Of a DNA stretch of 25,734 bases, positions 3,870-25,734 are shown in pieces (within the stretch, counting starts at the first letter, position 1; the number at the start of each line of letters is the position of its first letter). The notes beneath the pieces were generated by a model that made no database searches, was not told the DNA's origin, and saw only the letters and a list, made by a program, of their open reading frames with translations. The translations under genes were made by a program, and so were the position numbers. The DNA lies in the NCBI RefSeq assembly GCF_025526975.1, contig NW_026515690.1, positions 496,001 through 521,734 of the forward strand, read 5' to 3'. This DNA comes from Fimicolochytrium jonesii. Lineage: Eukaryota.

Positions 3870-3871
3870 TA

Positions 3872-4482: not shown

Positions 4483-4922
4483 ATACGAACGACGTGACGT
4501 GGCTTCACAAGTGTCCCCAAATTCATTTCCCGCCCTCAGCTCGCCCCCGACAAAGTAAGCATAACCGAGAAGAGCCCACTCCCGGATTGCACAGCAGGGA
4601 ACTAGAAAACTTGCCGAGCCGGTATTGGCAACAGGGCAATGACAAACCTATGGACAGTGATTAGAGTAGATGAGAGGAAACTGCTTGATAAATTTACGGT
4701 CAAAGGAAACTCGCACACACTCAGCATACCATAATAGAGCGAGGAAAAACAGCTCACTGCTCGCACATTGACGGGAGACGCGCTGTCGGAACTGATGCCG
4801 AGAGGAAGGAAGGAAGGAAGGCCGTTTTTGCCTCCTAAAGGGTATATCGCCAACGCGAGGGTGAGACCATAAACTGGATAAGCGGCAAAGTGGAACTATA
4901 TATATACTGTATACAGTACGTA

Positions 4923-6301
4923 CAGCCAATGGACATAAACCTGTGCACCCCCTCTAATCGAATTCAATGACCGTTTCACAAGCGGATGCGCGTTCCATCC
5001 AGCCTGCCTCCGGACAAGCCAGGATCTTACCGACATGCCCGCAATTGCGACCTCCATCTTCATCCCCTGCTATGGGCAAACCACTCTCCCCTCAGCAGAG
5101 GGCTGCCATAGTGGCGCTGCACAGGTCAGGCAAGAACAAGCGACAAATAGCTGCACAGGAGGGGGTTGCATTCAGGACTGTTCAGTATACTATCAAGAAG
5201 TTTGCTGCTGAATCTGCGGACAGCCCACCGTCCTATCAGTCAAAAAAGCCACCGGGAAGACCAGCTAAGTATCAACCAGAGGACGGTGACTTGGAGGAGT
5301 TCCGCAGACTTGTTCTCTCAGATATTCAGACACGAGAAAAGACATTAAAACAAATTCGGTTGGAACTCATCCCTCTTACAGGTATCACGGCATGCGAAAA
5401 GACAGTGCGTCCTTACCTTCACAAACTCCTCCATTTGACCTCCCGCTTCAAAATCCACAAGCCGTTTTTGTCTGACAAGCACAAAGCAGCACGCCTTGCG
5501 TTTGCGTTGGAACATCAGCACTGGACAGTTGCGGATTGGTCACGGGTTGTGTGGACGGATGAGACGTCTTTTGATATTGGCTGGGTTCCCAAAATGCGAT
5601 GTTGGCGTCTGCGAACTGAACATTTTCACCCTGACTGTATCAGAGGCACTCGACGTAGCGGATGCAAAACATTTATGTATTGGGGAGCATTTATTGGAAA
5701 CGCTGTTGGTCCGTTGACGCAGGTCCAGCCGGTTCAGCGTGAGGGCCAAGTTTGCGGTAGGGGTATCAATTCCACTGCTTACGTTCAGCATTTAACCGCT
5801 CATCTTTTGCCAATGTGGCAAAACCTTGAGATTTTTGTTCCCAACCTCCTTTTCATGCAGGACAACGCCCCTATCCACACTTCTGCCAAAACGCGCCAAT
5901 TCTTTGCGGAGCATGGCATCAACATCATGCCGTAGCCAGCGCAGAGCCCCGATCTCAACCCAATTGAAAACCTCTGGGCGATTGTCAAGCGGGAGGTATC
6001 GCGGGCTAATGCAAATGCAGATGGTGTTGTGCAGCAGGTGTGGCCAACAGTGGAAAGGCATTTGGATAACCTAGTTGGATCGATGCCGACAAGGATGCAG
6101 GCAGTCATTGTTGCAAACGGAGGAACGACACGGTATTAATAAGGGTATTAGGCAGGAACCGAAGTCTAGATTTCATCTAGATTAGGTTCCTTATTGATCC
6201 CCGAGACTAAGGATGATGAGTCCGCGTCTAAATCAGTTGCGGCAACGCGACCGGTCACTGACTTAGTCTCAAGGGGTGCACAGCTTTATGTCCGTTGGCT
6301 G
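4923..6301 (+). mobile_element. Full-length Tc1/mariner DNA transposon, 1379 bp
   Basis: 29-bp TIRs CAGCCAATGGACATAAACCTGTGCACCCC (4923-4951) and GGGGTGCACAGCTTTATGTCCGTTGGCTG (6273-6301), 2 mismatches. TA duplication at 4921-4922 and 6302-6303. Internal transposase frame. Confidence 0.96.
5072..6139 (+). pseudogene. Tc1-family DD34E transposase with one premature stop
   Basis: N-terminal HTH region and PPGRP motif; catalytic WTDE, QDNAPIH and SPDLNPIE with 34 residues between the second D and the E. The conserved W of WPAQSPDLNPIEN is TAG (5933-5935); the frame continues to TAA at 6137-6139. Confidence 0.93.
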
Positions 6302-6574
6302 TACAGTGGATTTCCGAAAAGGTGGTTCAGCAGTACTGTATTGCTACCACGTACACTGGGAGCCTCTCACTGATCGCTATGTCCTTGAACTTGAAACCTA
6401 CCTCACCTCGTTCCCAATGCCTGCCACTCCCACACCCCTTTGTGGGAGAATCGGAAGCTGAACTTCATAGAAATGCTGGAAAGGATGCGGGTTAGGCCTA
6501 GGGTTGGACCATGCATAAGGTTAAACCAGGTCGAGGTCGGACCAGCTCTCCGTCGGTGCTACTTACCCCAGAAC

Positions 6575-6650
6575 GGTTAGGGTTAGGGTCAAGGACGATC
6601 GGCCTTGAATTCTCGAAGACGTGCAGATCTAGGGTTAGGGTTAGGGTTAG
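6575..6650 (+). repeat. Short interstitial TTAGGG tracts
   Basis: GGTTAGGGTTAGGGT at 6575-6589 and TAGGGTTAGGGTTAGGGTTAG at 6630-6650, same polarity as the terminal array. Confidence 0.8.
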
Positions 6651-7409
6651 CTCGGCGAAAGCGTCAAGGGGAGGGGGGGTTAATTCAGTACATCAGTGGC
6701 CGGCATTGAATGCTCAAAACCGACGTCGTTCCATGTTCTCGTCAGGGTCGCGAGGTTGCGTGGTTCAGAGTGAGCTTGGAAAGACCCCTGAGTTTGTTGA
6801 ACAATAACAACTACGTACAAAGGAAGTCCATTATTTTCCAATGCTCCGCGAGATGAAGGAGACCTTAACCAGGGCCCATTAGCACTGCAGTTGCAAAAAT
6901 CGCATTTCCGCCGCATCAAATACTTCCTCCGATGATTCTGTGGTTCGCTCTCATTACACTTTCGGTCAAATGGACATTCTGGGCTAGATGAATACTGTGT
7001 ATTGCTATTGGTTCCATTCACTTTGAATTTGAGAGGCAACTGACCGGCGTGAGGAGCGCCATGAGAACCCTGGCATTCACCAGTATTCCGTTTTTCTTCG
7101 GAAAAATATGATTCCGAACGCCAAAGGGTTAGCTTAGCTCGGCGTGAGAGGTCAGTTGAGGAAGGATGTTTATGGTCTCCGCTACTCTTTCGTGTGAAGC
7201 AAACTGTCCATGTTCGATCGAGTGCCAATCCCGCCAACAGTCAATGTGCTCTCATACGCGCCATGCCGTCACTTCCAGGGTTTCTCGCTTGGACACAACG
7301 AGATGACTGTTGATGTCGCATGCAGTCTCTACAAAACGACTCCTCACGGAATGGTCTATCCTCCTGTGCAACTACAAGCATATATTAACTTATTTCAAAC
7401 GGTGTCAGT

Positions 7410-8450
7410 ATGAGCGGTTGCGCCACAACCCTCACCGGCGGGATCGCTGTCGCAACTACCCCAACCAGCACCGCCATGCCTCCGGGGACGACCAGCTTCG
7501 GCAATGTGTTTGGGAACCTCACCCCTCGAATCTGCCAAGGCTCGTATACCTTCCAATTCTCCGTCTTGGATCAAGGCCCCTATGCGCGGTGCACCGTCGG
7601 CGTCTTCTACCGGTACGACTCGGCGACTGAATGGTGGAAGAACGCGATCCAGTTCATCCTGCCCCCCGCCACGGCCAGCGAATGCAACCTCGTCATCGGC
7701 CCGGACGACGATACCTCCAAATGGACACTGGGCGCCTGGCAGGAGACGGGATATTACTGGCAAAGTCTCAACTACGGCTTGCAACCGCAGACCAATTCTT
7801 CGATCCCGGTTTGCGTCAATACTTTACCCTCAGCCACAAACGACCCTTCCCTGACCCCGACGATGACCACGACGACGACGACGAACGGTCAACCCGACAC
7901 CCAGGCATTGCTGCAGAACTCGGGAGTCGTTGTCCCTTGGACCAAGCAGGAGATATCCATCACCAAACCGGTGCTGGTGGGCGGAGTCATCGGCATCGCT
8001 CTCGGCGGCGCGGCGCTCGCCCTCCTCGGGACTACGCTCTACTGGTTCCTGAAGCGCAAAAGGAATGAAGGGGAGAGGAAGGTCGGGCCGAACATCGAGG
8101 CGCCATCATCTCCTGTGTCACACGCCCCCAAGATGCAGCGTGGAGGAGAGACGCCTCATGGAGGGGATACGGAGGAGGCTCCTGCCGTCACGGGCATGCA
8201 CCCGGTGCGGGATGTTGGTGTCTGTCCTACCCCCGCCGTTGCTCATCCTTACAGCGAGAAGCAGGCGCAGGGGGAGACAGAGATGGGAAGTGGTAGAGAA
8301 GATGCAGGTGACGCTGCCCATTCTGCTTCCGGCAGGCAGGACCCTGAAATAGATCCTGAATTGGAAGAAGCTTCTGCGGAAACGGCTGGGCTTGGCCAGC
8401 GGACGTCGTTCGTCCCGCAACCCTCTGCTGCTGAACTCGAGCGCACATGA
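7410..8450 (+). CDS. Single-pass membrane protein (Cys-containing ectodomain, Thr-rich stalk, TM helix, disordered tail); upstream exon(s) likely
   Basis: 346-aa GC-rich ORF with a poly-Thr stalk and hydrophobic VLVGGVIGIALGGAALALLGTTLYWFL followed by KRKR. A branch/acceptor-like TTAAC...CAG lies just upstream (7385-7408). Confidence 0.75.
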   Translation: MSGCATTLTGGIAVATTPTSTAMPPGTTSFGNVFGNLTPRICQGSYTFQFSVLDQGPYARCTVGVFYRYDSATEWWKNAIQFILPPATASECNLVIGPDDDTSKWTLGAWQETGYYWQSLNYGLQPQTNSSIPVCVNTLPSATNDPSLTPTMTTTTTTNGQPDTQALLQNSGVVVPWTKQEISITKPVLVGGVIGIALGGAALALLGTTLYWFLKRKRNEGERKVGPNIEAPSSPVSHAPKMQRGGETPHGGDTEEAPAVTGMHPVRDVGVCPTPAVAHPYSEKQAQGETEMGSGREDAGDAAHSASGRQDPEIDPELEEASAETAGLGQRTSFVPQPSAAELERT

Positions 8451-11111
8451 TGTTGCTTCATACCGCCGCCAATCTTTAAATAAGATCTATCTGCTGTATC
8501 TATTTTTCTGCACGGTCGCCCTATGTACCATATAGAGACTAGGTTGTACAACTCAACACCCATCACGCAATGCACCCGGTGTAATACGGCTGAGGTTTCA
8601 CCCTCTCCGCCACGGTCGTGACCCTCCACTCGGAATGTCTGACATGGGAACCCCGATTCCCCTGACACGTCCCCATACAACACGGCCTGTTCGACTGCCA
8701 CAGATCGCAGGATACCCTCACAGGGAGCAAAGTCCGCGGCCCAAATACCATCCGCAGCCCGCAAACATGACGTCTAGGAGGACGGCCGAGCGCTTCCTGG
8801 ATACCTGCTGTCCGTGCGAGAGAACAACTCCTGGCGCGTCGACCGAGCCGCGCCAGCCGAATTGGATGTTCATTGGGCCCGGAGACGCAGTTCTACAGTG
8901 TATACTAATGAGGGGCAACAAAAGGAAAAGCCGGCTGCGATTAGAAGACTAGGCAACGAGCGCGGCGGGAGAGGACAGACTTGTGTGAAAAAGCTGCTCA
9001 CATCCACCAATGCGCCATGGCCGGGGCGGCATTGCATAGCCCAGATAGCCCAACGGCTCAACTGCGCGACACCGGCGGGGATGACGAAGTCGGCATGCTA
9101 GGTAACGGCCCCGCTCAGCATCTGCCACATGAGCACATGCCTCGATGTACAGTATACACAGTTGGCGCCGGCACAAGGGGTACGGGTGCTGCTGCAGAAT
9201 GAACAGCGGGTCATCCCATCTCGACTCTCGCTATAAATCTCTAAGGGCCTTGGCGAGCGTCAAAGCGCATCGACTTCTCATTCGGTTGTCATCTTTGTCA
9301 AGGCGACAGCAAGCAATCCAAACGGTCGAAATACCTGGGCAAGCAAACCTGGCAGTCACAGGATGCCGCCAATGCCAACGGAGGTGTTGCGGGTGTCTAT
9401 TTGGATTACTAAGGCTCGGGAACCTCCATAACCCTCACTACCGCAAGAACCTCCGTCACAATCTCGAGACCCATTGCGCGCAATGCTGGGACACAGTGAA
9501 CACCACGCACTTATCAAGCGGTTGAGGAATATCCCTGGTCGCAGGACAGGGGGGACTTCGAGTTCGAAACGGAAAAATAGAGGCTGCCGACCTGCCGAGC
9601 AGTCTCTTTTTCCTTTTTCAAATGTAGTCTTCAGATTGCACGACGGGCGGAAGTGTGAAACTCTCCACGGTCGGACGCGCGTGCCTGCGTCGTGCGATGC
9701 GTCGTGCGCAGGTTTGCGGCACCGTTCAAACTCAGCTTCGCTGGAAGCCTTGGTTTGCTGGCTGAGGCACAAGACTGAGCAAGCTTGGGCGCTGGCACAT
9801 CCAGGGGAGGAGACCTGGAGACGCGGACGACGAAGGACTGAAAAGGCTGTCACGAGCGCGATGGAACCGCCGGGACGACTTACATTAAGCGGTCTTTCGG
9901 GGCCGCGAACGGGAAAGACATGATCACTGGCCGATTCTTGGGGTTCGGAAGCACCTTTAGTGTGCATGAGATATTGTCGCGGACTCCGAATGGAAAGCGG
10001 TGGTTAAGCTTAGCCGGAAACGCAATACGGTCGCCGTGGACGTTGAGCCTAGGTGTTGAGCATTCCCGACGGCTTCGGAAGCGTTCAATGATTCCTTGCC
10101 GGGGTAAGTCCGGCGTGCGGATCGGTGTAGTGGTTTCTCTTCTCTGTGACCGATTGCCATCGAGTCGAGCCTCAGGTTGAGCCCCGGACAAGCTGTGATG
10201 GTTTCTCGCGGAGCATCCACGCATAGCGTCGCTGCCCCATTGTCAACGTTTTCAGTCCGGAAAAGATCTGAAGTGGTCCGCCAGTGTGCGACGAGGTGCA
10301 AGATATGTCGCGGACACAAGGGACGATGCCATACGTCGCGGACTTCGGATTTGCGACTCCCGCCTACACCCGGAATTTTGAGGATGCCAGTCCTCGCCAC
10401 CCAATCTACGTATCTCCCAGGTTTCACACAGAAAATCCCATCAATTGGTCTGCGTGGATGAGTCTCTGTCGTCCTTGGCGGCGATGGCGAATACGGTGAT
10501 GGGCAAACTTCCCTGGCCTGCATATGAGCAGGTGAATATGGGGCATGATCGATGGCGTGCTTCCAATTTTACGACATTTGTTGCCTCACCGACCAACGAT
10601 GAGGAGGATTGTGGCGCTGCCACGAAAAAGCTTTCGGCGGCGTGACTGGGCGTTGGGTTCGCAAAGGCTTCCGTGGTGTGAGGATTGACAATTGAGGGGT
10701 GTGATCTGTGGGGTGCTTTGGGACGAACAATGTGCCCGACGAGTGGGATGGGAACATTCTTTTTGTTTCATGTAGGATTAGGGCTAATTGCAGGGCGGCG
10801 GTGGTATGTGCTTGAAGCACTTGTACGGACTACATCTGAAAACCAGTTTATATACATCTCTTTGCAAAATGTAACTAGCACACATATGAGATCATAGTCG
10901 CTTATCGTAACCGGAACCAATTACTGTTCAAGTATGCTGGGTATACGCCGATTGGGAAACAACAAGTGTGAGATGTATAAGGAAAAGGAAACGAGGGGCA
11001 ACAAGTCAGGACCTACACTACCCACTGCCGAATGGTTCCATCTGTACTACTATTATACTTCGTTCTCGCATCGGCAGAGACGACGACAGCCTTGACAGCT
11101 CCGGTGTGTCC

Positions 11112-11123
11112 TTAGGGTTAGGG

Positions 11124-11164
<41 letters not shown>

Positions 11165-11404
11165 GGTTAGGGTTAGGGTTAGGGTTAGGGTTAGGGTTAG
11201 GGTTAGGGTTAGGGTTAGGGGTTAGGGTTAGGGTTAGGGTTAGGGTTAGGGTTAGGGTTAGGGTTAGGGTTAGGGTTAGGGTTAGGGTTAGGGTTAGGGT
11301 TAGGGTTAGGGTTAGGGTTAGGTATAGGGTTAGGGTTAGGGTTAGGGTTAGGGTTAGGGTTAGGGTTAGGGTTAGGGTTAGGGTTAGGGTTAGGGTTAGG
11401 GTTA
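11112..11404 (+). repeat. Telomeric (TTAGGG)n tract 1, the innermost
   Basis: About 290 bp of TTAGGG with a few variant units. Confidence 0.99.
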
Positions 11405-12443
11405 CAAGACCCCCTGGGTTGGGTTTTATTTTTGGGTTGCCTGGAACCCTAGGGACTTAGAAATTTTCGGGTTTTTTGGCTTTTGGGTGTGTTCTACAGT
11501 TCAAATTCTTGACTCTGAGGGGTGTGGTGGCGGGGGGTGTTGCGCACCTAGGCAAGTCAGGGGGGACTAGGTGTGCAAGGGCAAGTGATGGGTCATATGG
11601 GTGGTGGTGCGGGTACGGGGGGGGGGGCAGGGGTGCCAATAGGGGAGGGGGGGGGGTTGATATAAAGGGGAAATATATGTTATATATACGTTATAGGACT
11701 TGTGCAAATTGGGATTTTTTTAGTGCCGATCTGGAGTTGGCGTCCTAATTAAAAGTTGGCCCCATATCATATTCTCTAATTGAAGTACTCTCGGATTGGC
11801 AATCCGTGCGGAAACGGCTTCAGAAACTTAGAAAAACGAAATTTTCACGCGACGGGGGGTAAAAAGTTGGAAAATGTGGTGATATCTCAACATCTGGCTG
11901 ACTATCCAGTGGAGGGCACTTAATGAAAGTTGATTGTAGCCTATGGTTTGCATAGCTGATGTGGTAGCAAATCTTGTGTAACCTTGCTTTTGGCTGAAGA
12001 ACAGGGCCCCTTTTCAATTCTCAAGTAGTGACCCCCAAGACCTCCTAACAAAAGACACGAGTACGTATGTGCAGGCAAAGGGGTTTGGCTGTGTTCTCCA
12101 GTAAACATTTTGTGATTCCGCTGTGCATCGTAGACTGTTTGTAGGACCGTTGCGGAATGTCATTTACCAAAACTGTTGAACATTTTCCGTTTAAAGCAGT
12201 GTTCTACAGTTTGTCCATGCAGGTTAGAGCACGTGACCTGGGCTTGCTTGCAGGGTATGCAGAGTGAGAGGGTTGGGGTTAGAGATTTCCCAGATCACTT
12301 ATTAAATTCAGCCAAACTGTCTCTGTCATGGAACATTTAAAATGGTGGAAAGTAGTATTGCATTTATTGATTTAGAGTACATTGGAAAAGCGCACATTCA
12401 GAAAAGGGTTTTGGTGTAAAGTTATCAACGACATTCAACAGTA

Positions 12444-14012
12444 CTAAAGGACTTCCGCAAGCATGTCACGGACTTGGTTCTGTCCAAAAGTCGTACGGCA
12501 CTCAGGGTACCTGGCGCAGCGGAGACGGAAACGATGCTGACCGCCAATGCTATGAAAAGCTGAGCCTCCACAGTTGGGACATTGAAGCTGATCACGATGC
12601 TGATGGAAGAGTTCACGGATATTGCCAATGGGAGCAGCATCAGGCACTTCCCCATCCCCATGACCCCACCAAGCACGAGCAGGATCAATGACGGGTGCAA
12701 TGCCTTTGAACCATCCGGGATTGAAACCAAAAGAGTTGAGAACATCTCGGAAGCGCTGACAGTCTGTCACAGTAGTCTGTCTATTGCGATCTCCTCTGAA
12801 TAGAACTCTGGTGGCAGCGTCCATGATGCCATTGATGAGACTGTAGTACTCTTCCACCGGCACAAGCTTCAAGGAGTTTGCGCCCATGTGCTGGAAAATG
12901 GTCTCGATCTGGTCCAAATGGAGATTCAAAACCATCTGTTCCGCTGATTCCAACCTGGCGCACTGAACTCGCACTTCAACTCGCATGCCAGTAATGTGGA
13001 GCGGGTGACCGTTGAGCCATTGACGTAAACCTCTCAGTGTCTCACTGCGATCACCAAGGCTGGACTTGGTTTGGGGCATTCGCGAAGACAAAGTCGAAGA
13101 GTAGGCTTTGAGCGCATGAACAAGCTTTGGGTAGCAAGTAACCCGAACATTGGCGTGACCCGCAATGTCAAAGCGGGTGGACCCAAATCCCTCACCAAGG
13201 ATGGTGAGCATGGGAAAGGTGGCTCCAACTCCACGTCCATTGTAGCAAACCAAAGGAATGACACCACGAGTGTTGAATGTCTGACCAATGTCCCATGTGT
13301 TGAGTGCAGCATCGGGATGGTTGCTCACTTCCTGGTCAAAGGAGTAGGCTGGCAAAGTCTGAATGCGTTGCTTCATTCCATACTGCACAATGCGTACAGA
13401 GGGTGACACAGCACCAATGATGTCCTGGAACCCAGACATCAACAGATTTTGCCGCCCAGCAATCAATCGTGAGTGATCCGTGCTTTCCCTCACGATGATC
13501 GAATGTTCATTGTGAAGTAACTCAAGAATCCTTGCCTTCGACTCTGGATTGAATGGAATGCTAATGACACAAGGTCTGCTAGCGATCCGCATCCAACCGG
13601 CGAAAGCTTCACTGTCCTTGATATGCTGCATCACTCCAGACAGTTCAACCAAGGTGAAGGCACCAAAGAGGGTGGTCAGCTTTGTGGTAGGGAGCGTAAA
13701 GGCCATCCAGTCCACATCAAAGTAGCCAGTACTGCGGAAGACCCCAAACTGCTCATCCTGAAGGGCAGGAGAGCGATGGTGTTCCTCATGTGAAGAGCTT
13801 GAGCGAGAAGTTGGCAACTCGATGTCCTCACGCCCCTCATCACTATGATGATGAGGGTTGGAGCTGTGTGAACCAGAAATGGACAACTCCACATCCAAAC
13901 TGCCGATGCTGGATGAGGTCTGGGAGATTTCGACCTGAAGGCTGGTGTTCGACATGGATGAGGTAAGGCTCGACGGCGAAAGGGTGTTGTTGGTGAATGC
14001 GGTGAAAGGCAT
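12444..14012 (-). CDS. Family A protein, 522 aa: Ser-rich N-terminus, putative Rep_trans/gpII-like nickase core, C-terminal topoisomerase-type C4 zinc ribbon
   Basis: Intronless ORF kept open in three copies, with a paralog in family B. Motifs DVDWMAFT, QYGMK, WDIG, TCYPK, GMRVEVR and CPNC-x17-CARYPEC. The CDS is well supported; the function is inference. Confidence 0.85.
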   Translation of the reverse strand: MPFTAFTNNTLSPSSLTSSMSNTSLQVEISQTSSSIGSLDVELSISGSHSSNPHHHSDEGREDIELPTSRSSSSHEEHHRSPALQDEQFGVFRSTGYFDVDWMAFTLPTTKLTTLFGAFTLVELSGVMQHIKDSEAFAGWMRIASRPCVISIPFNPESKARILELLHNEHSIIVRESTDHSRLIAGRQNLLMSGFQDIIGAVSPSVRIVQYGMKQRIQTLPAYSFDQEVSNHPDAALNTWDIGQTFNTRGVIPLVCYNGRGVGATFPMLTILGEGFGSTRFDIAGHANVRVTCYPKLVHALKAYSSTLSSRMPQTKSSLGDRSETLRGLRQWLNGHPLHITGMRVEVRVQCARLESAEQMVLNLHLDQIETIFQHMGANSLKLVPVEEYYSLINGIMDAATRVLFRGDRNRQTTVTDCQRFRDVLNSFGFNPGWFKGIAPVIDPARAWWGHGDGEVPDAAPIGNIRELFHQHRDQLQCPNCGGSAFHSIGGQHRFRLRCARYPECRTTFGQNQVRDMLAEVL

Positions 14013-14165
14013 GGTGTTGGCCCTGGTGTTGGCGATGGTATTGGTGTCGGTATTGGCGTAGGTGCTGAAATGTGGTGGTGGTGCGTGCTTTTGGAGGGAG
14101 GGAATCTGAACAGCCCTCTCCTTTTATAAAAGTCTGGCCAAAGGCAACCTGGAGCTGTTCTTCAG

Positions 14166-14338
14166 TTTTTTTCTGCAACCCTACCTTTTTTTTTTCCTAA
14201 CTTTTTTTTTCCCCTTTTTTGTTTTCACTACTCCTTTTTTTTCGTGACTTTTTTTTTTCACTACTCCTTTTTTTTTTTCGGACTTTTTTTTTTTCCACTA
14301 ATCCTTTTTTTTTCGACTTTTTTTTTTCACTAAACTTT
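14166..14338. repeat. T-rich tandem repeat in family A
   Basis: Units of about 32-37 bp, CACTA(C/A)TCC-Tn-CG(N)GAC-Tn, starting at 14226, 14259, 14296 and a partial unit at 14328. Confidence 0.85.
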
Positions 14339-14413
14339 TTAGGGTTAGGGTTAGGGTTAGGGTTAGGGTTAGGGTTAGGGTTAGGGTTAGGGTTAGGGTT
14401 AGGGTTAGGGTTA
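14339..14413 (+). repeat. Telomeric tract 2
   Basis: (TTAGGG)n between A1 and A2. Confidence 0.99.
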
Positions 14414-17217
14414 CAAGACCCCCTGGGTTGGGTTTTATTTTTGGGTTGCCTGGAACCCTAGGGACTTAGAAATTTTCGGGTTTTTTGGCTTTTGGGTGTG
14501 TTCTACAGTTCAAATTCTTGACTCTGAGGGGTGTGGTGGCGGGGGGTGTTGCGCACCTAGGCAAGTCAGGGGGGACTAGGTGTGCAAGGGCAAGTGATGG
14601 GTCATATGGGTGGTGGTGCGGGTACGGGGGGGGGGGGCAGGGGTGCCAATAGGGGAGGGGGGGGGGTTGATATAAAGGGGAAATATATGTTATATATACG
14701 TTATAGGACTTGTGCAAATTGGGATTTTTTTAGTGCCGATCTGGAGTTGGCGTCCTAATTAAAAGTTGGCCCCATATCATATTCTCTAATTGAAGTACTC
14801 TCGGATTGGCAATCCGTGCGGAAACGGCTTCAGAAACTTAGAAAAACGAAATTTTCACGCGACGGGGGGTAAAAAGTTGGAAAATGTGGTGATATCTCAA
14901 CATCTGGCTGACTATCCAGTGGAGGGCACTTAATGAAAGTTGATTGTAGCCTATGGTTTGCATAGCTGATGTGGTAGCAAATCTTGTGTAACCTTGCTTT
15001 TGGCTGAAGAACAGGGCCCCTTTTCAATTCTCAAGTAGTGACCCCCAAGACCTCCTAACAAAAGACACGAGTATGTATGTGCAGGCAAAGGGGTTTGGCT
15101 GTGTTCTCCAGTAAGCATTTTGTGATTCCGCTGTGCATCGTAGACTGTTTGTAGGACCGTTGCGGAATGTCATTTACCAAAACTGTTGAACATTTTCCGT
15201 TTAAAGCAGTGTTCTACAGTTTGTCCATGCAGGTTAGAGCACGTGACCTGGGCTTGCTTGCAGGGTATGCAGAGTGAGAGGGTTGGGGTTAGAGATTTCC
15301 CAGATCACTTATTAAATTCAGCCAAACTGTCTCTGTCATGGAACATTTAAAATGGTGGAAAGTAGTATTGCATTTATTGATTTAGAGTACATTGGAAAAG
15401 CGCACATTCAGAAAAGGGTTTTGGTGTAAAGTTATCAACGACATTCAACAGTACTAAAGGACTTCCGCAAGCATGTCACGGACTTGGTTCTGTCCAAAAG
15501 TCGTACGGCACTCAGGGTACCTGGCGCAGCGGAGACGGAAACGATGCTGACCGCCAATGCTATGAAAAGCTGAGCCTCCACAGTTGGGACATTGAAGCTG
15601 ATCACGATGCTGATGGAAGAGTTCACGGATATTGCCAATGGGAGCAGCATCAGGCACTTCCCCATCCCCATGACCCCACCAAGCACGAGCAGGATCAATG
15701 ACGGGTGCAATGCCTTTGAACCATCCGGGATTGAAACCAAAAGAGTTGAGAACATCTCGGAAGCGCTGACAGTCTGTCACAGTAGTCTGTCTATTGCGAT
15801 CTCCTCTGAATAGAACTCTGGTGGCAGCGTCCATGATGCCATTGATGAGACTGTAGTACTCTTCCACCGGCACAAGCTTCAAGGAGTTTGCGCCCATGTG
15901 CTGGAAAATGGTCTCGATCTGATCCAAATGGAGATTCAAAACCATCTGTTCCGCTGATTCCAACCTGGCGCACTGAACTCGCACTTCAACTCGCATGCCA
16001 GTAATGTGGAGCGGGTGACCGTTGAGCCATTGACGTAAACCTCTCAGTGTCTCACTGCGATCACCAAGGCTGGACTTGGTTTGGGGCATTCGCGAAGACA
16101 AAGTCGAAGAGTAGGCTTTGAGCGCATGAACAAGCTTTGGGTAGCAAGTAACCCGAACATTGGCGTGACCCGCAATGTCAAAGCGGGTGGACCCAAATCC
16201 CTCACCAAGGATGGTGAGCATGGGAAAGGTGGCTCCAACTCCACGTCCATTGTAGCAAACCAAAGGAATGACACCACGAGTGTTGAATGTCTGACCAATG
16301 TCCCATGTGTTGAGTGCAGCATCGGGATGGTTGCTCACTTCCTGGTCAAAGGAGTAGGCTGGCAAAGTCTGAATGCGTTGCTTCATTCCATACTGCACAA
16401 TGCGTACAGAGGGTGACACAGCACCAATGATGTCCTGGAACCCAGACATCAACAGATTTTGCCGCCCAGCAATCAATCGTGAGTGATCCGTGCTTTCCCT
16501 CACGATGATCGAATGTTCATTGTGAAGTAACTCAAGAATCCTTGCCTTCGACTCTGGATTGAATGGAATGCTAATGACACAAGGTCTGCTAGCGATCCGC
16601 ATCCAACCGGCGAAAGCTTCACTGTCCTTGATATGCTGCATCACTCCAGACAGTTCAACCAAGGTGAAGGCACCAAAGAGGGTGGTCAGCTTTGTGGTAG
16701 GGAGCGTAAAGGCCATCCAGTCCACATCAAAGTAGCCAGTACTGCGGAAGACCCCAAACTGCTCATCCTGAAGGGCAGGAGAGCGATGGTGTTCCTCATG
16801 TGAAGAGCTTGAGCGAGAAGTTGGCAACTCGATGTCCTCACGCCCCTCATCACTATGATGATGAGGGTTGGAGCTGTGTGAACCAGAAATGGACAACTCC
16901 ACATCCAAACTGCCGATGCTGGATGAGGTCTGGGAGATTTCGACCTGAAGGCTGGTGTTCGACATGGATGAGGTAAGGCTCGACGGCGAAAGGGTGTTGT
17001 TGGTGAATGCGGTGAAAGGCATGGTGTTGGCCCTGGTGTTGGCAATGGTATTGGTGTCGGTATTGGCGTAGGTGCTGAAACGTGGTGGTGGTGCGTGCTT
17101 TTGGAGGGAGGGAATCTGAACAGCCCTCTCCTTTTCTAAAAGTCTGGCCAAAGGCAACCTGGAGCTGTTCTTCAGTTTTTTTCTGCAACCCTACCTTTTT
17201 TTTTTCCTAACTTTTTT
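14414..17217 (-). mobile_element. Family A copy 2 (2804 bp)
   Basis: Near-identical to A1 (offset 3009-3010, few substitutions). Same start junction; ends earlier inside the T-rich tract. Confidence 0.9.
15454..17022 (-). CDS. Family A protein, copy 2 (522 aa from the ATG equivalent to copy 1)
   Basis: Translation matches A1 from MPFTAF to the stop. The ORF-track extension to 17157 uses a non-ATG start. Confidence 0.85.
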   Translation of the reverse strand: MPFTAFTNNTLSPSSLTSSMSNTSLQVEISQTSSSIGSLDVELSISGSHSSNPHHHSDEGREDIELPTSRSSSSHEEHHRSPALQDEQFGVFRSTGYFDVDWMAFTLPTTKLTTLFGAFTLVELSGVMQHIKDSEAFAGWMRIASRPCVISIPFNPESKARILELLHNEHSIIVRESTDHSRLIAGRQNLLMSGFQDIIGAVSPSVRIVQYGMKQRIQTLPAYSFDQEVSNHPDAALNTWDIGQTFNTRGVIPLVCYNGRGVGATFPMLTILGEGFGSTRFDIAGHANVRVTCYPKLVHALKAYSSTLSSRMPQTKSSLGDRSETLRGLRQWLNGHPLHITGMRVEVRVQCARLESAEQMVLNLHLDQIETIFQHMGANSLKLVPVEEYYSLINGIMDAATRVLFRGDRNRQTTVTDCQRFRDVLNSFGFNPGWFKGIAPVIDPARAWWGHGDGEVPDAAPIGNIRELFHQHRDQLQCPNCGGSAFHSIGGQHRFRLRCARYPECRTTFGQNQVRDMLAEVL

Positions 17218-17352
17218 TTAGGGTTAGGGTTAGGGTTAGGGTTAGGGTTAGGGTTAGGGTTAGGGTTAGGGTTAGGGTTAGGGTTAGGGTTAGGGTTAGG
17301 GTTAGGGTTAGGGTTAGGGTTAGGGTTAGGGTTAGGGTTAGGGTTAGGGTTA
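17218..17352 (+). repeat. Telomeric tract 3
   Basis: (TTAGGG)n between A2 and B1. Confidence 0.99.
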
Positions 17353-19530
17353 CAGGACTGTTCCGGGTTATGGGTTATTTTTGGTGGTCCGGAAAGTGTC
17401 AAAAATAGGTGCTAGCAATGTTCAGGGGCGTCTTACTGTACTGTACATAAAATTGTGGGGCATGTTTTCCACTCAATGCTCCCGGAAAATCCGTTTTTCA
17501 GATTTTTTACTATGAAAATGTGACCAAAACGCATTTTCTGAAGCTCTGAGTGGATGGAATTTGCTTGAAGTGGAATATGTCTCAGAAAACATCCCCAAAA
17601 ACATCTAGGAACCTTCATCTACTCTAGTATTCATCAACTCCTGGCACTTTTTGTTTCCAGGCAATATGGGGGTGTTCTCCAGTTGGTGGCGAATGGCTCA
17701 TTTTGGTTTGCTCTCAATTTGCTACATGTTCAAATCCTTTTGAGGCCCAAATACTTTCTTTTCTTCCACTGCTCCTCCTGATGGTGGAGGATGGCAAATG
17801 CCTTTTTGCATTGCAATACATGGATATGACAGGGTGTTTGTCAACCAGCAAATCATGCAAAAAGCATGCAGTGCATGTCCGTTTGCATGCACTATGTCAT
17901 CCGCACCACCTTGGACACCTGAGGAAAGTTGTGCGGATTTGAAAGATAATATAGTTACGGAAGTGGAACCAGGGAGATTCAATGACTATTGAAGGAGCTA
18001 TGGCACACGTAAGTCCCCAGGGGTGGGACTTAGAGAATTTTCAAAGATTTTGGTGACTCATGGCGCAGGTTTGATTCTCAGAGGGGGCCAGGCCTTCTTT
18101 TCTTTTTTTCCTCCTTCAAAATGTCTTTAAATACGTCTAGCATTGCTTGACAGTGTCAGGAAACAATCAAAAAGCTGAGAAGTGCAGGTAAAAAGTGTTT
18201 TTGGCCGATCTACAAGCAAAACATGCGAAAAACCGGCGGTGCGTGTCCATTCGCATGCACTACATCATCCGTTCCACCTTGGCCATCCAAGGCAATGGTG
18301 CGGATTCAAAAGATAGTATAGGTACGGAAGGGAAACCAGGGAGATTCAATCACTATTGACAGAGCTATGGCACCCGCAAGCTCCAATGGGTGGGACTTAG
18401 AGAATTTTCGAAAATTTTGCATTTTGCGCCGTCTGGTTGACCTGACCAAACACAGGTAACATTCTACCGACAGACATTGGCATAGTGGCAAGTGCTAATG
18501 TTATCTGAACTAGTGCCCCAAGTTCCAACCCCGGTTTTGCTGGGGATACTTTTTTTTTTCTTTTTCCCGCGCCACCCGAAACACGATGTGGGCGTAACGA
18601 AAGTTGTAGCCAGATATATGTTCTCATAGTTAAAGTCATCTCAGATGTGCAATTAAGCTGTAAACGGCTGCAGAAAATGCAAAAAACAAAATAGGATTGA
18701 CGCTTTTCTCAAAATCCAACACCACCTGGAATGCATTAAAGCCAGTCCATACACATGTCCTTTACCTAGGAACCCCCTACAGATGAATTCCCATAGTCCC
18801 CGGACACCCATAGCGCACTCTATACAACTCTACTATGCACGCATACTGGTTAGGGTTAGCCTGCGCCCTATCTGGCGAATACGTTTTCAATGCATTTCAT
18901 CGATGGCAAATAGCGCAGTTGCATAAGATACTCAATTCACAACCGAGGGTGCATGGTTCAAACCTTGCGTTCGACACAACAACAGAGGGATTTTTCCGGG
19001 GGCAAAATAAATATCACCATGCACCCATATCAATACGATGTGGACTGGATGGCGGTTACGATCAGTTTAACTGATCTTAACCAGCTGTTCGATAGGTCCA
19101 CCATTGTCCAAATGGCGGGCGCTCGTCCGCCGTTCAAGGATGACCCATTCTATAAGGAATGGATTACGGTTGTGAGCCAACCGTTCATACTGAGCATCCC
19201 GCCGAGTCGGGGTGTTAGAGAGGGGATCATTGAGGGATTATATAGGGACCATGGAATAATTGTGCGGGGGAGTGACAGCCCTAATAGCACGATTCAGGGC
19301 AGACAGCATGTGGCGTTGGATACCCTGATTGGGACCTTGTCGGAATGCGTTGAAGGGGGAATGGTTAGGATAGTGCAGTACGGGATGAAGGCTTACTGGG
19401 AGACCATGGCAGCGAAGGATGCGGTCTACGAGAGTTCAGGGGGCCGGTCGAATACCTTCGACATAGGATTGATGATCAGGAGCATGGATATCCCGGTGCT
19501 GAGGGGACGAGATGAGGCAGGGGATGAGGG
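17353..19530 (+). mobile_element. Telomere-embedded element, family B copy 1 (longest, about 2.18 kb)
   Basis: Starts GGGTTA|CAGGACTGTTCC. 1.6 kb non-coding arm, then a + strand ORF homologous to the A protein, cut by TTAGGG. Four shorter copies in the window. Confidence 0.88.
17847..18419. repeat. Diverged direct repeat of about 205 bp inside B1 (17847-18052 and 18215-18419)
   Basis: Shared blocks GCATGCACTA, CCACCTTGG, AACCAGGGAGATTCAAT, GAGCTATGGCAC and GGGTGGGACTTAGAGAATTTTC at a spacing of about 367 bp. Confidence 0.9.
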
Positions 19531-19534
19531 TTAG
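18953..19534 (+). pseudogene. 3'-truncated family B protein, paralog of the family A protein
   Basis: Colinear matches to A: DVDWMA.T, SIP, H.IIVR, GRQ, VRIVQYGMK, NT.DIG. The stop codon comes from the telomere repeat. Likely start ATG 19019 (CACCATG) or 18953. Confidence 0.85.
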
Positions 19535-19581
19535 GGTTAGGGTTAGGGTTAGGGTTAGGGTTAGGGTTAGGGTTAGGGTTA
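19527..19581 (+). repeat. Telomeric tract 4
   Basis: (TTAGGG)n. Confidence 0.99.
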
Positions 19582-19704
19582 CAAGACCCCCTGGGTTGGG
19601 TTTTATTTTTGGGTTGCCTGGAACCCTAGGGACTTAGAAATTTTCGGGTTTTTTGGCTTTTGGGTGTGTTCTACAGTTCAAATTCTTGACTCTGAGGGGT
19701 GTGG
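19582..19704. mobile_element. Family A copy 3 (123-bp terminal fragment)
   Basis: Matches A1 from CAAGAC to GGGGTGTGG. Confidence 0.9.
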
Positions 19705-19776
19705 GTTAGGGTTAGGGTTAGGGTTAGGGTTAGGGGTTAGGGTTAGGGTTAGGGTTAGGGTTAGGGTTTAGGGTTA
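19703..19776 (+). repeat. Telomeric tract 5
   Basis: (TTAGGG)n with variant units. Confidence 0.98.
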
Positions 19777-20068
19777 CAGGACTGTTCCCGGTTATGGGTT
19801 ATTTTTGGCCATCCAAAAAGTGTCAAATAAAGTTGCTAGCAATGTTCAGGGGCATCTTACTGTAATGTGCTTCAAATCTTGGGGCATGTTTTCCACTCAA
19901 TGCCCCGGGAAAATCTGTTTTTCCGATTTTTTACTATGAAAATATTGCCAAAATGCATTTTCTGAAACTCTGAGTGGATGGATTCCGCTTAAAGTGGAAT
20001 ATGTCTCGGAAAACATCCCCAAAAACATCTAGGAACCTTCATCTACTCTAGTATTCATCAACTCCTGG
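19777..20068. mobile_element. Family B copy 2 (292-bp terminal fragment)
   Basis: Starts CAGGACTGTTCCC and ends CAACTCCTGG, followed by a short TTAGGG tract (20067-20084). Confidence 0.9.
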
Positions 20069-20084
20069 GTTAGGGTTAGGGTTA

Positions 20085-20807
20085 CAGGACTGTTCCCGGT
20101 TATGGGTTATTTTTGGCCATCCAAAAAGTGTCAAATAAAGTTGCTAGCAATGTTCAGGGGCATCTTACAGTAATGTGCCTCAAATTTTGGGGCATGTTTT
20201 CCACTCAATGCCCCAGGAAAATCTGTTTTTCCGATTTTTTACCATGAAAATATTGCCAAAATGCATTTTCTGAAACTCTGAGTGGATGGATTTCGCTTAA
20301 AGTGAGATATGTCTCAGAAAACATCCCAAAAACATCTAGGAACCTTCATCTACTCTAGTATTCATCAACTCCTGGTACTTTTTGTTTCCAGGCAATATGG
20401 GGGTGTTCTCCAGTTGGCAGCAAATGACCCATTTTGGTTTGCTCTCAATTTGCTCCATGTTCAAATCCTTTTAAGGCCCAAATACTTTCTTTTCTTCCAT
20501 TGCTCCTCCTGTTGGTGGAGGATGGCAAATGCCTTTTTGCATTGCAATACATGGATATGACAGGGTGTTTGTCAACCAGCAAATCATGCAAAAAGCATGC
20601 AGTGCATGTCTATTTGCATGCCCTATGTCATCCGTACCACCTTGGACACCCAAGGAAAGGTATGCGGACTCAAAAGAAAATATACTTACGGAAGTGGAAC
20701 CAGGGAGATTCAATGACTATTTAACGAGCTATGGCACACGTAAGTTCCCAGGAGTGGGACTTAGCACAATTTGAGAAAACATATCAGAGGAACTGGAGAA
20801 CACACTC
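20085..20807. mobile_element. Family B copy 3 (723 bp)
   Basis: Colinear with B1 up to GGGACTTAG (20764), then 43 bp not found in B1, then a short TTAGGG tract (20808-20822). Confidence 0.9.
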
Positions 20808-20822
20808 TTAGGGTTAGGGTTA

Positions 20823-20928
20823 CAAGACCCCCTGGGTTGGGTTTTATTTTTGGGTTGCCTGGAACCCTAGGGACTTAGAAATTTTCGAGTTTTTTGGCTT
20901 TTGGGTGTGTTCTACAGTTCAAATTCTT
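20823..20928. mobile_element. Family A copy 4 (106-bp terminal fragment)
   Basis: CAAGAC to CAAATTCTT, followed by a TTAGGG tract at 20929-20985. Confidence 0.9.
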
Positions 20929-20985: not shown

Positions 20986-23400
20986 CAAGACCCCCTGGGT
21001 TGGGTTTTATTATTGGGTTGCCTGGAACCCTAGGGACTTAGAAATTTTCGAGTTTTCTGGCTTTTGGGTGTGTTCTACAGTTCGAATTTTTGACTCTGAG
21101 GGATGTAGTGGCGGGGGGGTGTTGCGCACCTAGGCAAGTCGGGGAGGACTAGGTGTGCAAGGGCAAGTGATGGGTCATATGGGCGGTGGTGCGGGTACGG
21201 GGGGCGGCAGGGGTGCCAATAGGGGGGGGGGGGGTTGATGTAAAGGGGACATATATGTTATATATACGTTATAGGACTTGTGCAAATTGGGATTCTTATA
21301 GTGCCGATCCGGAGTTGGCGTCCTAATTGAAAAGTTGGACCCATATCATATTCTCTAATTGAAGTACTCTCGGATTGGCAATCCGTGCGGAAACGGCTTC
21401 AGAAACTTAGAAAAACGAAATTTTCACGCGACGGGGGGTAAAAAGTTGGAAAATGTGGTGATATCTCAACATCTGGCTGACTATCCAGTGTAGGGCACTT
21501 AATGAAAGTTGATTGTAGCCTATGGTTTGCATAGGCTGATGTGGTAGCAAATCTTGTGTAACCTTGCTTTTGGCTGAAGAACAGGGCCCCTTTTCAATTC
21601 TCAAGTAGTGACCCCCAAGACCTCCTAACAAAAGACACGAGTACGTATGTGCAGGCAAAGGGGTTTGGCTGTGTTCTCCAGTAAACATTTTGTGATTCCG
21701 CTGTGCATCGTAGACTGTTTGTAGGACCCTTGCGGAATGTTATTTACCAAAACTGTTGAACATTTTCCGGTTAAAGCAGTGTTCTACAGTTTGTCCATGC
21801 AGGTGAGAGCACGTGACCTGGGCTTGCTTGCAGGGTACGCAGAGTGAGAGGGTTAGGGTTAGAGATTTCCCAGATCACTTATTAAATTCAGCCAAACTGT
21901 CTCTGTCATGGAACATTTAAAATGGTGGGAAGTAGTATTGCATTTATTGATTTAGAGTACATTGGAAAAGCGCACATTCAGAAAAGGGTTTTGGTGTAAC
22001 GTTATCAACGGCATTCAACAGTACTAAAGGACTTCCGCAAGCATGTCACGGACTTGGTTCTGTCCAAAAGTCGTACGGCACTCAGGGTACCTGGCGCAGC
22101 GGAGACGGAAACGATGCTGACCGCCAATGCTATGAAAAGCTGAGCCTCCACAGTTGGGACATTGAAGCTGATCACGATGCTGATGGAAGAGTTCACGGAT
22201 ATTGCCAATGGGAGCAGCATCAGGCACTTCCCCATCCCCATGACCCCACCAAGCACGAGCAGGATCAATGACGGGTGCAATGCCTTTGAACCATCCGGGA
22301 TTGAAACCAAAAGAGTTGAGAACATCTCGGAAGCGCTGACAGTCTGTCACAGTAGTCTGTCTATTGCGATCTCCTCTGAATAGAACTCTGGTGGCAGCGT
22401 CCATGATGCCATTGATGAGACTGTAGTACTCTTCCACCGGCACAAGCTTCAAGGAGTTTGCGCCCATGTGCTGGAAAATGGTCTCGATCTGGTCCAAATG
22501 GAGATTCAAAACCATCTGTTCTGCTGATTCCAACCTGGCGCACTGAACTCGCACTTCAACTCGCATGCCAGTAATGTGGAGCGGGTGACTGTTGAGCCAT
22601 TGACGTAAACCTCTCAGTGTCTCACTGCGATCCCCAATGCTGGACTTGGTTTGGGGCATTCGCGAAGACAAAGTCGAAGAAGAGGCTTTGAGCGCATGAA
22701 CAAGCTTTGGGTAGCAAGTAACCCGAACATTGGCGTGACCCGCAATGTCAAAGCGGGTGGACCCAAATCCCTCACCAAGGATGGTGAGCATGGGAAAGGT
22801 GGCGCCAACTCCACGTCCATTGTAGCAAACCAAAGGAATGACCCCATGAGTGTTCAACGTCTGACCAATGTCCCATGTGTTCAGTGCAGCATCGGGATGG
22901 TTGCTCACTTCCTGATCAAAGGAATAAGCTGGCAAAGTCCGAATGCGTTGCTTCATTCCATACTGCACAATGCGTACAGAGGGTGACACAGCACCAATGA
23001 TGTCCTGGAACCCAGACATCAACAGATTTTGCCGCCCAGCAATCAATCGTGAGTGATCCGTGCTTTCCCTCACGATGATCGAATGTTCATTGTGAAGTAA
23101 CTCAAGAATCCTTGCCTTTGACTCTGGATTGAATGGAATGCTAATGACACAAGGTCTGCTAGCGATCCGCATCCAACCGGCGAAAGCTTCACTGTCCTTG
23201 ATATGCTGCATCACTCCAGACAGTTCAACCAAGGTGAAGGCACCAAAGAGGGTGGTCAGCTTTGTGGTAGGGAGCGTAAAGGCCATCCAGTCCACATCAA
23301 AGTAGCCAGTACTGCGAAAGACCCCAAACTGCTCATCCTGAGGGGCAGGAGAGTGATGGTGTTCCTCATCTGAAGAGCTTGAGCGAGAAGTTGGCAACTC
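20986..23400 (-). mobile_element. Family A copy 5 (2415 bp, variant subtype)
   Basis: Colinear with A1 but with more substitutions than A2. Truncated inside the ORF's Ser-rich N-terminus. Confidence 0.9.
22024..23400 (-). pseudogene. Family A ORF, 5'-truncated by telomere repeats
   Basis: Frame is open and all motifs are retained, but the first ~64 codons including the ATG are replaced by telomere repeat. Confidence 0.85.
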
Positions 23401-23449: not shown

Positions 23450-23490
<41 letters not shown>

Positions 23491-23551: not shown

Positions 23552-23903
23552 CAGGACTGTTCCCGGTTATGGGTTATTTTTGGCCATCCAAAAAGTGTCA
23601 AATAAAGTTGCTAGCAATGTTCAGGGGCATCTTACTGTAATGTGCTTCAAATCTTGGGGCATGTTTTCCACTCAATGCCCCGGGAAAATCTGTTTTTCCG
23701 ATTTTTTACTATGAAAATATTGCCAAAATGCATTTTCTGAAACTCTGAGTGGATGGATTTCGCTTAAAGTGAGATATGTCTCAGAAAACATCCCCAAAAA
23801 CATCTAGGAACCTTCATCTACTCTAGTATTCATCAACTCCTGGCACTTTTTGTTTCCAGGCAATATGGGGGTGTTCTCCAGTTGGCGGCGAATGACTCAT
23901 TTT
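23552..23903. mobile_element. Family B copy 4 (352 bp), interrupted by an LTR
   Basis: B homology stops at GACTCATTTT, directly before TG at 23904. Confidence 0.88.
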
Positions 23904-24382: not shown

Positions 24383-24957
24383 CAAGACCCCCTGGGTTGG
24401 GTTTTATTATTGGGTTGCCTGGAACCCTAGGGACTTAGAAATTTTCGAGTTTTCTGGCTTTTGGGTGTGTTCTACAGTTCGAATTTTTGACTCTGAGGGA
24501 GGTAGTGGCGGGGGGTATTGCGCACCTAGGCAAGTCGGGGAGGACTAGGTGTGCAAGGGCAAGTGATGGGTCATATGGGCGGTGGTGCGGGTACGGGGGG
24601 GGGGGGTTGATATAAAGGGGACATATATGTTATATATACGTTATAGGACTTGTGCAAATTGGGATTTTTCTAGTGCCGATCCGGAGTTGGCGTCCTAATT
24701 GAAAAGTTGGCCCCATATCATATTCTCTAATTGAAGTACTCTCGGATTGGCAATCCGTGCGGAAACGGCTTCAGAAACTTAGAAAAACGAAATTTTCACG
24801 CGACGGGGGGTAAAAAGTTGGAAAATGTGGTGATATCTCAACATCTGGCTGACTATCCAGTGTAGGGCACTTAATGAAAGTTGATTGTAGCCTATGGTTT
24901 GCATAGCTGATGTGGTAGCAAATCTTGTGTAACCTTGCTTTTGGCTGAAGAACAGGG
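24383..24957. mobile_element. Family A copy 6 (575 bp, A5-like subtype)
   Basis: CAAGAC to GAAGAACAGGG, with a small deletion between G-runs near 24600. Followed by a TTAGGG tract at 24954-24991. Confidence 0.9.
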
Positions 24958-24991: not shown

Positions 24992-25245
24992 CAGGACTGT
25001 TCCCGGTTATGGGTTATTTTTGGCCATCCAAAAAGTGTCAAATAAAGTTGCTAGCAATGTTCAGGGGCATCTTACTGTAATGTGCTTCAAATCTTGGGGC
25101 ATGTTTTCCACTCAATGCCCCGGGAAAATCTGTTTTTCCGATTTTTTACTATGAAAATATTGCCAAAATGCATTTTCTGAAACTCTGAGTGGATGGATTT
25201 CGCTTAAAGTGAGATATGTCTCAGAAAACATCCCCAAAAACATCT
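24992..25245. mobile_element. Family B copy 5 (254 bp)
   Basis: CAGGAC to AAAAACATCT, matching B4. Followed by a TTAGGG tract at 25245-25420. Confidence 0.9.
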
Positions 25246-25420: not shown

Positions 25421-25476
25421 CAAGACCCCCTGGGTTGGGTTTTATTTTTGGGTTGCCTGGAACCCTAGGGACTTAG
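25421..25476. mobile_element. Family A copy 7 (56-bp terminal fragment)
   Basis: CAAGAC to GGGACTTAG. Confidence 0.88.
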
Positions 25477-25734
25477 GGTAGGGTTAGGGTTAGGGTTAGG
25501 GTTAGGGTTAGGGTTAGGGTTAGGGTTAGGGTTAGGGTTAGGGTTAGGGTTAGGGTTAGGGTTAGGGTTAGGGTTAGGGTTAGGGTTAGGGTTAGGGTTA
25601 GGGTTAGGGTTAGGGTTAGGGTTAGGGTTAGGGTTAGGGTTAGGGTTAGGGTTAGGGTTAGGGTTAGGGTTAGGGTTAGGGTTAGGGTTAGGGTTAGGGT
25701 TAGGGTTAGGGTTAGGGTGGGTTAGGGGTTAGGG
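25473..25734 (+). repeat. Terminal telomeric (TTAGGG)n array
   Basis: G-rich strand runs 5'->3' to the end of the window, as expected at a right chromosome end. Confidence 0.97.

Follow-up and report, generated by a model that had tools for sequence, protein, structure and literature searches.

Initiators of the Rep_trans group are described as bacterial and archaeal only in a 2026 account (PMC13107129). The nick site of Rep_trans/MOBT enzymes is CT'AA (PMC9371924), the 5' end is held on the tyrosine and then rejoined to a free 3'-OH (PMC9371924, PMC5703833), and in pT181-family origins the binding repeat comes after the nick (PMC4797284). The CT'AA nick site is visible in pT181. In the literature surveyed, eukaryotic rolling-circle transposons use HUH enzymes, and the elements that target telomeres are retroelements. 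Replitron-1 has a fixed end after a short target and a fuzzy other end (PMC10288648), and the anatomy of telomeric arrays is set out for MoTeR (10.1101/845669) and FoTeR (PMC12857005).

Here, we analyzed a 25,734-nt stretch of DNA from the chytrid Fimicolochytrium jonesii (the window). A subtelomere with genes and small transposons extends up to position 11111, after which TTAGGG tracts alternate with other sequence as far as a terminal tract. This array comprises 12 copies, seven of family A and five of family B, which are truncated members of two related families stacked in one telomere. They are probably telomere-targeted nick-and-join DNA transposons that would be mobilized by a predicted Rep_trans-like tyrosine nickase. 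The array is laid out as follows.

11112..11404, plus strand: innermost TTAGGG tract, 293 nt, with a few variant units; here the subtelomere gives way to the element array
11405..14338, no strand: E1, longest family A copy, 2934 nt
14180..14340, no strand: family A far end, made of degenerate T-rich tandem repeats; T-runs close both E1 and E2 here
14414..17217, no strand: E2, family A, 99.75% identity to E1, with an intact minus-strand ORF (17022-15454)
17353..19526, no strand: E3, longest family B copy, subtype B1, handled as one element
19582..19702, no strand: E4, family A stub, 121 nt
19777..20066, no strand: E5, family B2 stub, 290 nt; variant flank repeats in common with E9
20085..20807, no strand: E6, family B2, about 723 nt
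20823..20927, no strand: E7, family A stub, about 105 nt
20986..23400, no strand: E8, family A variant, 97.7% to E1
23552..23903, no strand: E9, family B2, 352 nt; an LTR-like piece comes next (23904-24329)
24383..24954, no strand: E10, family A variant, 572 nt
24992..25245, no strand: E11, family B2 stub, 254 nt
25421..25473, no strand: E12, family A stub, 53 nt, barely beyond the signature
25474..25734, plus strand: terminal TTAGGG tract reaching the window end

Arm B of E3 contains an internal 212-nt direct duplication (82%; 17841-18052 and 18209-18419). The last 35 nt of E6 (20773-20807) have no match in the longer B copy E3 and represent either a diverged B2 continuation or captured sequence. 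The piece after E9, which we take to be of Gypsy-like type, is a 426-nt TG...CA sequence resembling a solo LTR; its left neighbor is E9, its right side runs directly into telomere repeats, and it has no matching flanks. The subtelomere itself contains an ankyrin-repeat gene (489-1208), a non-coding MITE-like element with 63-nt inverted repeats (90%) starting TACAGTA and an internal 28-nt tandem duplication (3350-3871), a Tc1/mariner element with 32-nt inverted repeats, whose transposase frame (Pfam HTH_Tnp_Tc3_2) is broken by a stop at 5933-5935 (4920-6304), and a gene for a predicted single-pass membrane protein without a Pfam match (7389-8450).

A first-pass annotation had assigned all 12 copies to one telomere register and had seen no poly(A) tail. 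Both observations hold: at 12 of 12 coordinates ...AGGGTTA precedes and CA[AG]GAC comes next, and no poly(A/T) was found at the junctions. The common pattern given there, CA[AG]GAC-n5/6-GGGTT-n5-TTATTTTTGG, was recovered in part. While its CA[AG]GAC start is present in every copy, six of the 12 depart from the exact pattern, four B copies by having CGGTT and two A copies by having TTATTATTGG. A relaxed signature of about 42 nt, CA[AG]GAC-n5/6-[GC]GGTT-n5-TTATT[TA]TTGG-n4-CC-n3-AA, defined after viewing the copies, is found in all 12 and has no other match in the window on either strand. The final 18 nt of this signature make up an imperfect palindrome, located 25-42 nt inside the element in 12/12 copies, the 4-nt spacer of which differs among A, B1 and B2; by analogy to the repeat that comes after the nick in pT181-family origins, this palindrome is a candidate binding site of a dimeric enzyme. 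The features concerned are:

11405..11446, plus strand: shared terminal signature, family A (CAAGAC...TTATTTTTGG-n4-CC-n3-AA); predicted origin end, function inferred
11429..11446, no strand: imperfect 18-nt palindrome TTTTTGG-n4-CCnnnAA
11752-11842 (A) and 18600-18692 (B), plus strand: 94-nt block common to A and B, 71% identity, same orientation, 0/400 shuffles

The A and B termini resemble each other more closely than chance would produce. Their global score of 32 was reached by two of 20,000 random arm-window pairs and by none of 20,000 shuffles, each terminus is the other's best match across the whole arm, and a local test gave 3/3,000 for B1 and 11/3,000 for B2. At nt 33-130, A/B similarity was not significant (1009 and 244 of 3,000). 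The earlier description of the arms as otherwise largely dissimilar has to be amended for the 94-nt block, which lies at different distances from the element end in the two arms and is a candidate second cis site, e.g. a second-strand origin. The exact element terminus is ambiguous from sequence, in that trailing telomere bases (A, TA or TTA) could be the element's own. Folding of both strands revealed no conserved stable terminal structure or nick hairpin, with hairpins at the terminus being weak only (-1 to -3 kcal/mol; z 0.3 to -0.6).

In all copies, the junction reads TA followed by CA[AG]. Because TA occurs once per TTAGGG, insertion of a TA-targeting cut-and-paste (Tc1/mariner-like) element would also fix the register, and TA followed by CAG presumably resembles mariner ends. 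However, no inverted copy of the terminus was found on the other strand in the window, a second end is absent from the 12 copies, and our main protein model matches TBP-fold rather than RNase H-fold proteins (see below). Without terminal inverted repeats and an RNase H-fold match, such an element is largely refuted and in our judgment highly improbable.

The 12/12 count overstates the evidence, as the copies are related by descent. E1 and E2 are 99.75% identical, E9 and E11 are identical across 254 nt, and E5 and E9 have two variant repeats in common in the telomere tract just before the junction, indicating that they were copied together with their flank. Only two or three of the junctions may be independent, and one of six phases would be common to two families in one case in six by chance alone. 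The informative evidence is rather that two diverged families, with 37% protein identity, have kept one phase and one terminus. Recombination or break-induced replication likely gave rise later to many of the 12 copies, and recombinational copying contributes under every model; most of the junction constancy is one junction inherited through such copying, an option absent from the first-pass annotation.

The outer ends, in contrast to the fixed inner end, are all different, and fresh TTAGGG repeats follow them. For eight copies, a longer copy is available for comparison; in these, the outer junctions exhibit 0-4 nt of microhomology and telomere repeats in several phases, a pattern that would be expected from telomerase healing. 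Production of the outer ends by the enzyme at T'AA was ruled out, as the outer junctions fall in many phases.

These data also bear on the idea that the copies stem from rolling-circle plasmids or circles bearing telomere repeats, which would be replicated by the Rep-like protein and enter telomeres by homologous recombination, the register then being one inherited junction. Copies that travel with flanking variant repeats (E5/E9) and the near-identical tandem copies E1/E2 would fit such a scenario, as would the role of Rep_trans proteins as replicon initiators and the location of many homologs on 2-6 kb contigs, although short contigs are usual in such collections. On the other hand, neither a second fixed end nor a circle junction is present in the 12 copies, and the outer ends lie in many phases, with 0-4 nt of microhomology. 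Moreover, circles would need selection to keep the terminus across two families that are 37% identical, which leads back to an enzyme site. We therefore regard an origin from circles as quite unlikely.

Genes were found in both families:

12444..14012, minus strand: ORF A, 522 aa from the first ATG; predicted Rep_trans-like TBP-fold domain and C-terminal four-cysteine zinc ribbon
19019..19528, plus strand: first 170 codons of ORF B; over this length the product is identical to P0001, a 523-aa database protein
18848-18859, plus strand: internal GGTTAGGGTTAG tract, 12 nt, inside E3, 160 nt before ORF B

The family A ORF is intact in E1 and E2, while in E8 the start has been lost and 458 codons are open. 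Between E1 and E8, 20 codons have changed, 11 silently and nine with replacement (P 0.002-0.01 against neutrality), so that ORF A, as judged from codon changes, is under purifying selection. ORF B is cut by telomere addition ahead of the predicted catalytic tyrosine, and the remaining fragment is 37% identical to ORF A. With ORF A on the minus strand and ORF B on the plus strand, homologous genes face opposite ways in one polar array. The named source of P0001 is the chytrid Fimicolochytrium jonesii. The P0001 record comprises two identical copies with adjacent locus tags on one 460-kb contig, which suggests that full-length elements of type B lie in tandem at another genomic site. At the C terminus, P0001 and its close homologs (P0001-P0004) have a domain of some 60 residues rich in tryptophan, which is absent from ORF A.

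The GGTTAGGGTTAG tract ahead of ORF B could be a promoter-type motif or a 13th junction. Its phase differs from that of the 12 junctions, and the signature is absent. Continuity of arm B and ORF B across the tract was not found, the best alignments being reached by 34-36 of 400 shuffles. Short telomere-like tracts comparable to it are present in the subtelomere at 6575-6649; GGGTTAG tracts occur there and at 7125-7140, two of them followed by CTCGGCG, and are possible binding sites or old healing scars.

A profile search retrieved 389 homologs (E up to 0.001), which together with ORF A and ORF B constitute a previously undescribed family; for the protein core, Pfam (51 proteins scanned), NCBIfam and PHROGs gave no family match. 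Among 22 homologs looked up, organism names are given for four, all of them fungi; the named homologs derive from the chytrids Fimicolochytrium and Blyttiomyces, from Ceraceosorus and from Puccinia coronata. In the basidiomycete Ceraceosorus, five cluster members lie on different contigs, accompanied by one more distant member, and an OTU protease is present in 17 of the 51 homologs scanned. With several copies in one basidiomycete and OTU fusions, the relatives look mobile. In a quick tree (110 rows, midpoint root), ORF A and P0001 are sisters with a support of 0.87. A distant homolog, P0129, gave a weak Rap1-Myb match (E 0.002), below the cut-off. Related loci were not found in the metagenome and viral contigs searched, and no RNA sequencing runs were listed as containing the sequence. 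One soil DNA sequencing run (share 0.07) yielded two 151-nt contigs that lie within ORF A at 99%, as well as a single partial match, with nothing on family B and no junction sequence in the contigs.

Gene content and gene orientation also bear on the leading alternative, a retroelement origin with movement in trans. In that case, A and B would derive from a telomere-targeting retroelement of the MoTeR/FoTeR or Athena/Coprina/Terminon kind, either as its 3' fragments or as its non-autonomous partners; reverse transcription of an RNA ending in TAACCC would start from the G-strand end, with the Rep-like gene as cargo. Head-to-tail arrays with fixed inner ends, variably truncated outer ends and telomere caps are known for MoTeRs, FoTeRs and Terminons, FoTeR 3' ends are reported to be followed by TAACCC in the same phase (PMC12857005), and Terminons carry accessory Rep genes (PMC6431247). 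In addition, ORF A is oriented as such an RNA would require, and no copy in the window is known to be full length. ORF B, however, runs antisense to an RNA of this kind. These truncated copies gave no YxDD motif in any frame and, in the ORFs scanned, no reverse transcriptase Pfam match, no Rfam match was obtained at E up to 5 across 11000-25734, the hammerhead core pattern is absent from the inner ends on both strands, and poly(A) is lacking. Furthermore, all genes found in the array are members of one conserved nickase-like family, represented in both element types and under purifying selection. We consider a retroelement origin unlikely. The first-pass annotation had offered, as one of two explanations, that a terminal TAACCC anneals to the G-overhang, as in Athena/Terminon; no reverse transcriptase or hammerhead was found in the window to go with it, and that option is the less probable of the two.

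To what protein fold do these genes point? An AlphaFold model of the ORF A protein (pLDDT 93, from 129 sequences) matched Rep_trans initiators at all of ranks 1-5 in a Foldseek search of the PDB (RepDE 4cwc, E 4.1e-3, probability 0.97, TM 0.24/0.35), with no E below 0.001. VIA ranked RepSTK1 first among 823 Foldseek candidates (Z 6.2, rmsd 4.2, 177 aligned), with TBP next, and likewise among 48,161 representatives (Z 6.0, rmsd 4.5, 186 aligned), where helical bundles aligned to a different region scored equally, at a Z of about 6. With the exception of one weak row (2p61), every listed chain that spans residues 1-285 belongs to Rep_trans or TBP. Among viral models, inovirus proteins account for the top named match and for two further named entries in the first 16, two of these proteins being named as replication proteins; Atlas provided leads only, to G2P (0.82) and Rep_trans (0.76). 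With a second model, of homolog P0004, in which the first strand is absent (9 sequences, pLDDT 79.5), RepDE appeared only at rank 9 (E 0.66). At the sequence level, searches of solved structures returned weak unrelated rows or none, PF02486 was not matched in Pfam scans that included 51 proteins, and hhalign against a narrow profile built from 27 pT181-like Reps gave no significant match (probability 0.3, with the RxE strand alone aligned). The predicted structural match to the Rep_trans TBP fold is moderate.

The residue pattern is a stronger argument than the structural scores. In an alignment of the window protein with 128 of 150 listed homologs (22 mostly short or partial ones left out), D7 is conserved in 93/94, D147 in 122/122, G183 in 124/124, Y200 in 124/125, R250 in 117/124 and E252 in 121/124 rows (core numbering), and D7, D147, Y200 and E252 are all present in 87 of the 90 rows covering them. 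In the model, these four residues lie in strands E5-14, E145-152, E192-201 and E249-256, respectively. The order D, D, Y, E is that of RepD D46, D142, Y191 and E214, a correspondence by motif, not by superposition. Also conserved are a K at Y-2 (116/124), R/K at Y+2 (84/125) and G/A at D+2 (121/122). G183, R250, the basic residues at Y-2 and Y+2 and the small residue at D+2 parallel G180, R212, R189, K193 and A144, respectively; the reference Rep_trans residues were taken from PMC4797284, PMC13107129 and PMC5714925. In ORF A, the predicted catalytic residues are D101, D241, Y294 and E346 (codons beginning at 13712, 13292, 13133 and 12977).

Deviations were also noted. Motif I reads N-x-x-D, not R-x-D as in Rep_trans, and position Y-2, critical in RepD (PMC4797284), is T in both window families but K in most of the family. 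An HUH motif was not found, as none of the conserved His columns (33, 138, 205 and 393) are two apart, and Y200 is located in a strand, as opposed to the helix-borne HUH tyrosine. Based on these predictions, the ORF A protein is very probably a Rep_trans-like nickase; it is a distant Rep_trans relative, outside PF02486 as defined.

The first-pass annotation had also proposed sequence-specific cleavage and joining at TTA^GGG, with the shared 30 bp as likely cis-acting origin. The predicted nickase fold and catalytic pattern favor cleavage and joining as such, and the predicted Rep_trans-like activity lends support to an origin; the signature is longer, at about 42 nt, and a cut at the T'A step (TT^AGGG / CCCT^AA) is more likely than one at TTA^GGG. 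CTAA is present in the telomere C-strand and is one of 12 among the 256 possible four-mers that occur in the telomere repeat. Its T-A step, a bond common to both strands, precedes the junction given earlier by one base. If the family chemistry applies, a cut there would shift the terminus by one base, to 11404, and the element would begin ACA[AG]GAC.

We suggest the following route for nick-and-join transposition. The enzyme would bind the palindrome 25-42 nt inside the element, nick the G-rich strand at GGGTT'ACA[AG]GAC and stay on the 5' end of the element. Host synthesis from the freed 3'-OH would displace the element strand toward the chromosome end, so that a terminator would be unnecessary. 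The element 5' end could then be joined to a GGGTT-3'-OH that arises from cutting the single-stranded overhang of another telomere, for which the overhang might do without a nick hairpin, and broken outer ends would be healed by telomerase. Alternatively, nicking would occur at CT'AA on the C-rich strand, and the junction would be the end at which termination takes place; this version would match CT'AA exactly and could carry upstream repeat variants. As the pT181 repeat comes after the nick and the palindrome comes after the junction on the G-rich strand, the G-strand nick is modestly favored over its C-strand counterpart. The G-strand route would account for the polarity, the single fixed end and the indifference to gene orientation. 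The variant repeats before the E5 and E9 junctions could not be carried by it and would need recombination, and the absence of a helicase counts against the transposon reading.

In the literature searched (open listings and the openings of abstracts), neither a eukaryotic Rep_trans-like transposon nor telomeric elements of this chytrid are described, and the elements are likely a new class. If nick-and-join transposition applies, they would represent a new transposase class for eukaryotes and extend TBP-fold initiators to the third domain; they would also provide a DNA-only route, without an RNA step, for adding sequence to chromosome ends and thus act as DNA-based telomere extenders. More tentatively, and with slightly less than even confidence, we envisage a superfamily of fungal DNA transposons with a TBP-fold tyrosine transesterase, which would be the first Rep_trans relative known from eukaryotes, whose ancestral T'A(A) preference happened to match the telomere, which ligate their 5' end to chromosome ends and in which run-off synthesis plus telomerase replace the terminator. 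Even with another route of movement, 389 unannotated proteins, the named ones being from chytrids, a smut relative and a rust, would gain a catalytic assignment. A telomere-specific nick-and-join enzyme could, moreover, serve as a tool for tagging chromosome ends.

Among known systems, the array resembles in outward form the ascomycete non-LTR elements MoTeR and FoTeR, which likewise form polar head-to-tail arrays in TTAGGG; their inner end is fixed, their outer ends are truncated and telomere-capped, the far end carries tandem repeats, and copying includes flank variants. In the window, unlike in these, no reverse transcriptase or REL endonuclease was found, though no complete copy is known, and the ORFs occur in both orientations. 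The endonuclease-deficient Penelope-like Athena, Coprina and Terminon elements have in common with the present ones G-rich telomere-end attachment, truncation by telomere repeats and Rep genes, which are passengers there; here, a reverse transcriptase and 3' hammerhead were not found, and no gene other than the Rep-like one was detected. The Reps of Terminons belong to the HUH type.

Helitrons, Replitrons and IS91, which employ HUH enzymes, share orientation-specific insertion at a short target and one precise plus one imprecise end. One-ended transposition of IS91 is a further parallel, and Replitrons also lack a helicase. Helentrons share the OTU accessory domain (PMC6431247). Differences from the HUH transposons lie in the missing HUH motif, the strand tyrosine, an unrelated fold, the telomere-repeat target and a second fixed end not seen here.

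With regard to the Rep_trans (PF02486)/MOBT/Phage_CRI initiators and archaeal Rep-Arvir, the elements differ in residing at chromosome ends of a eukaryotic host and not on plasmids, phages or ICEs. Their protein lacks a sequence-level family match, a GC-rich nick hairpin was not found, and the family has an extra invariant D, H and K, a zinc ribbon and often an OTU domain. What links them to this group is the predicted TBP-like fold with an ordered D-D-E triad and a strand-borne tyrosine and, as possible parallels, a T-A step at the junction like that in CT'AA and a palindrome after the site.
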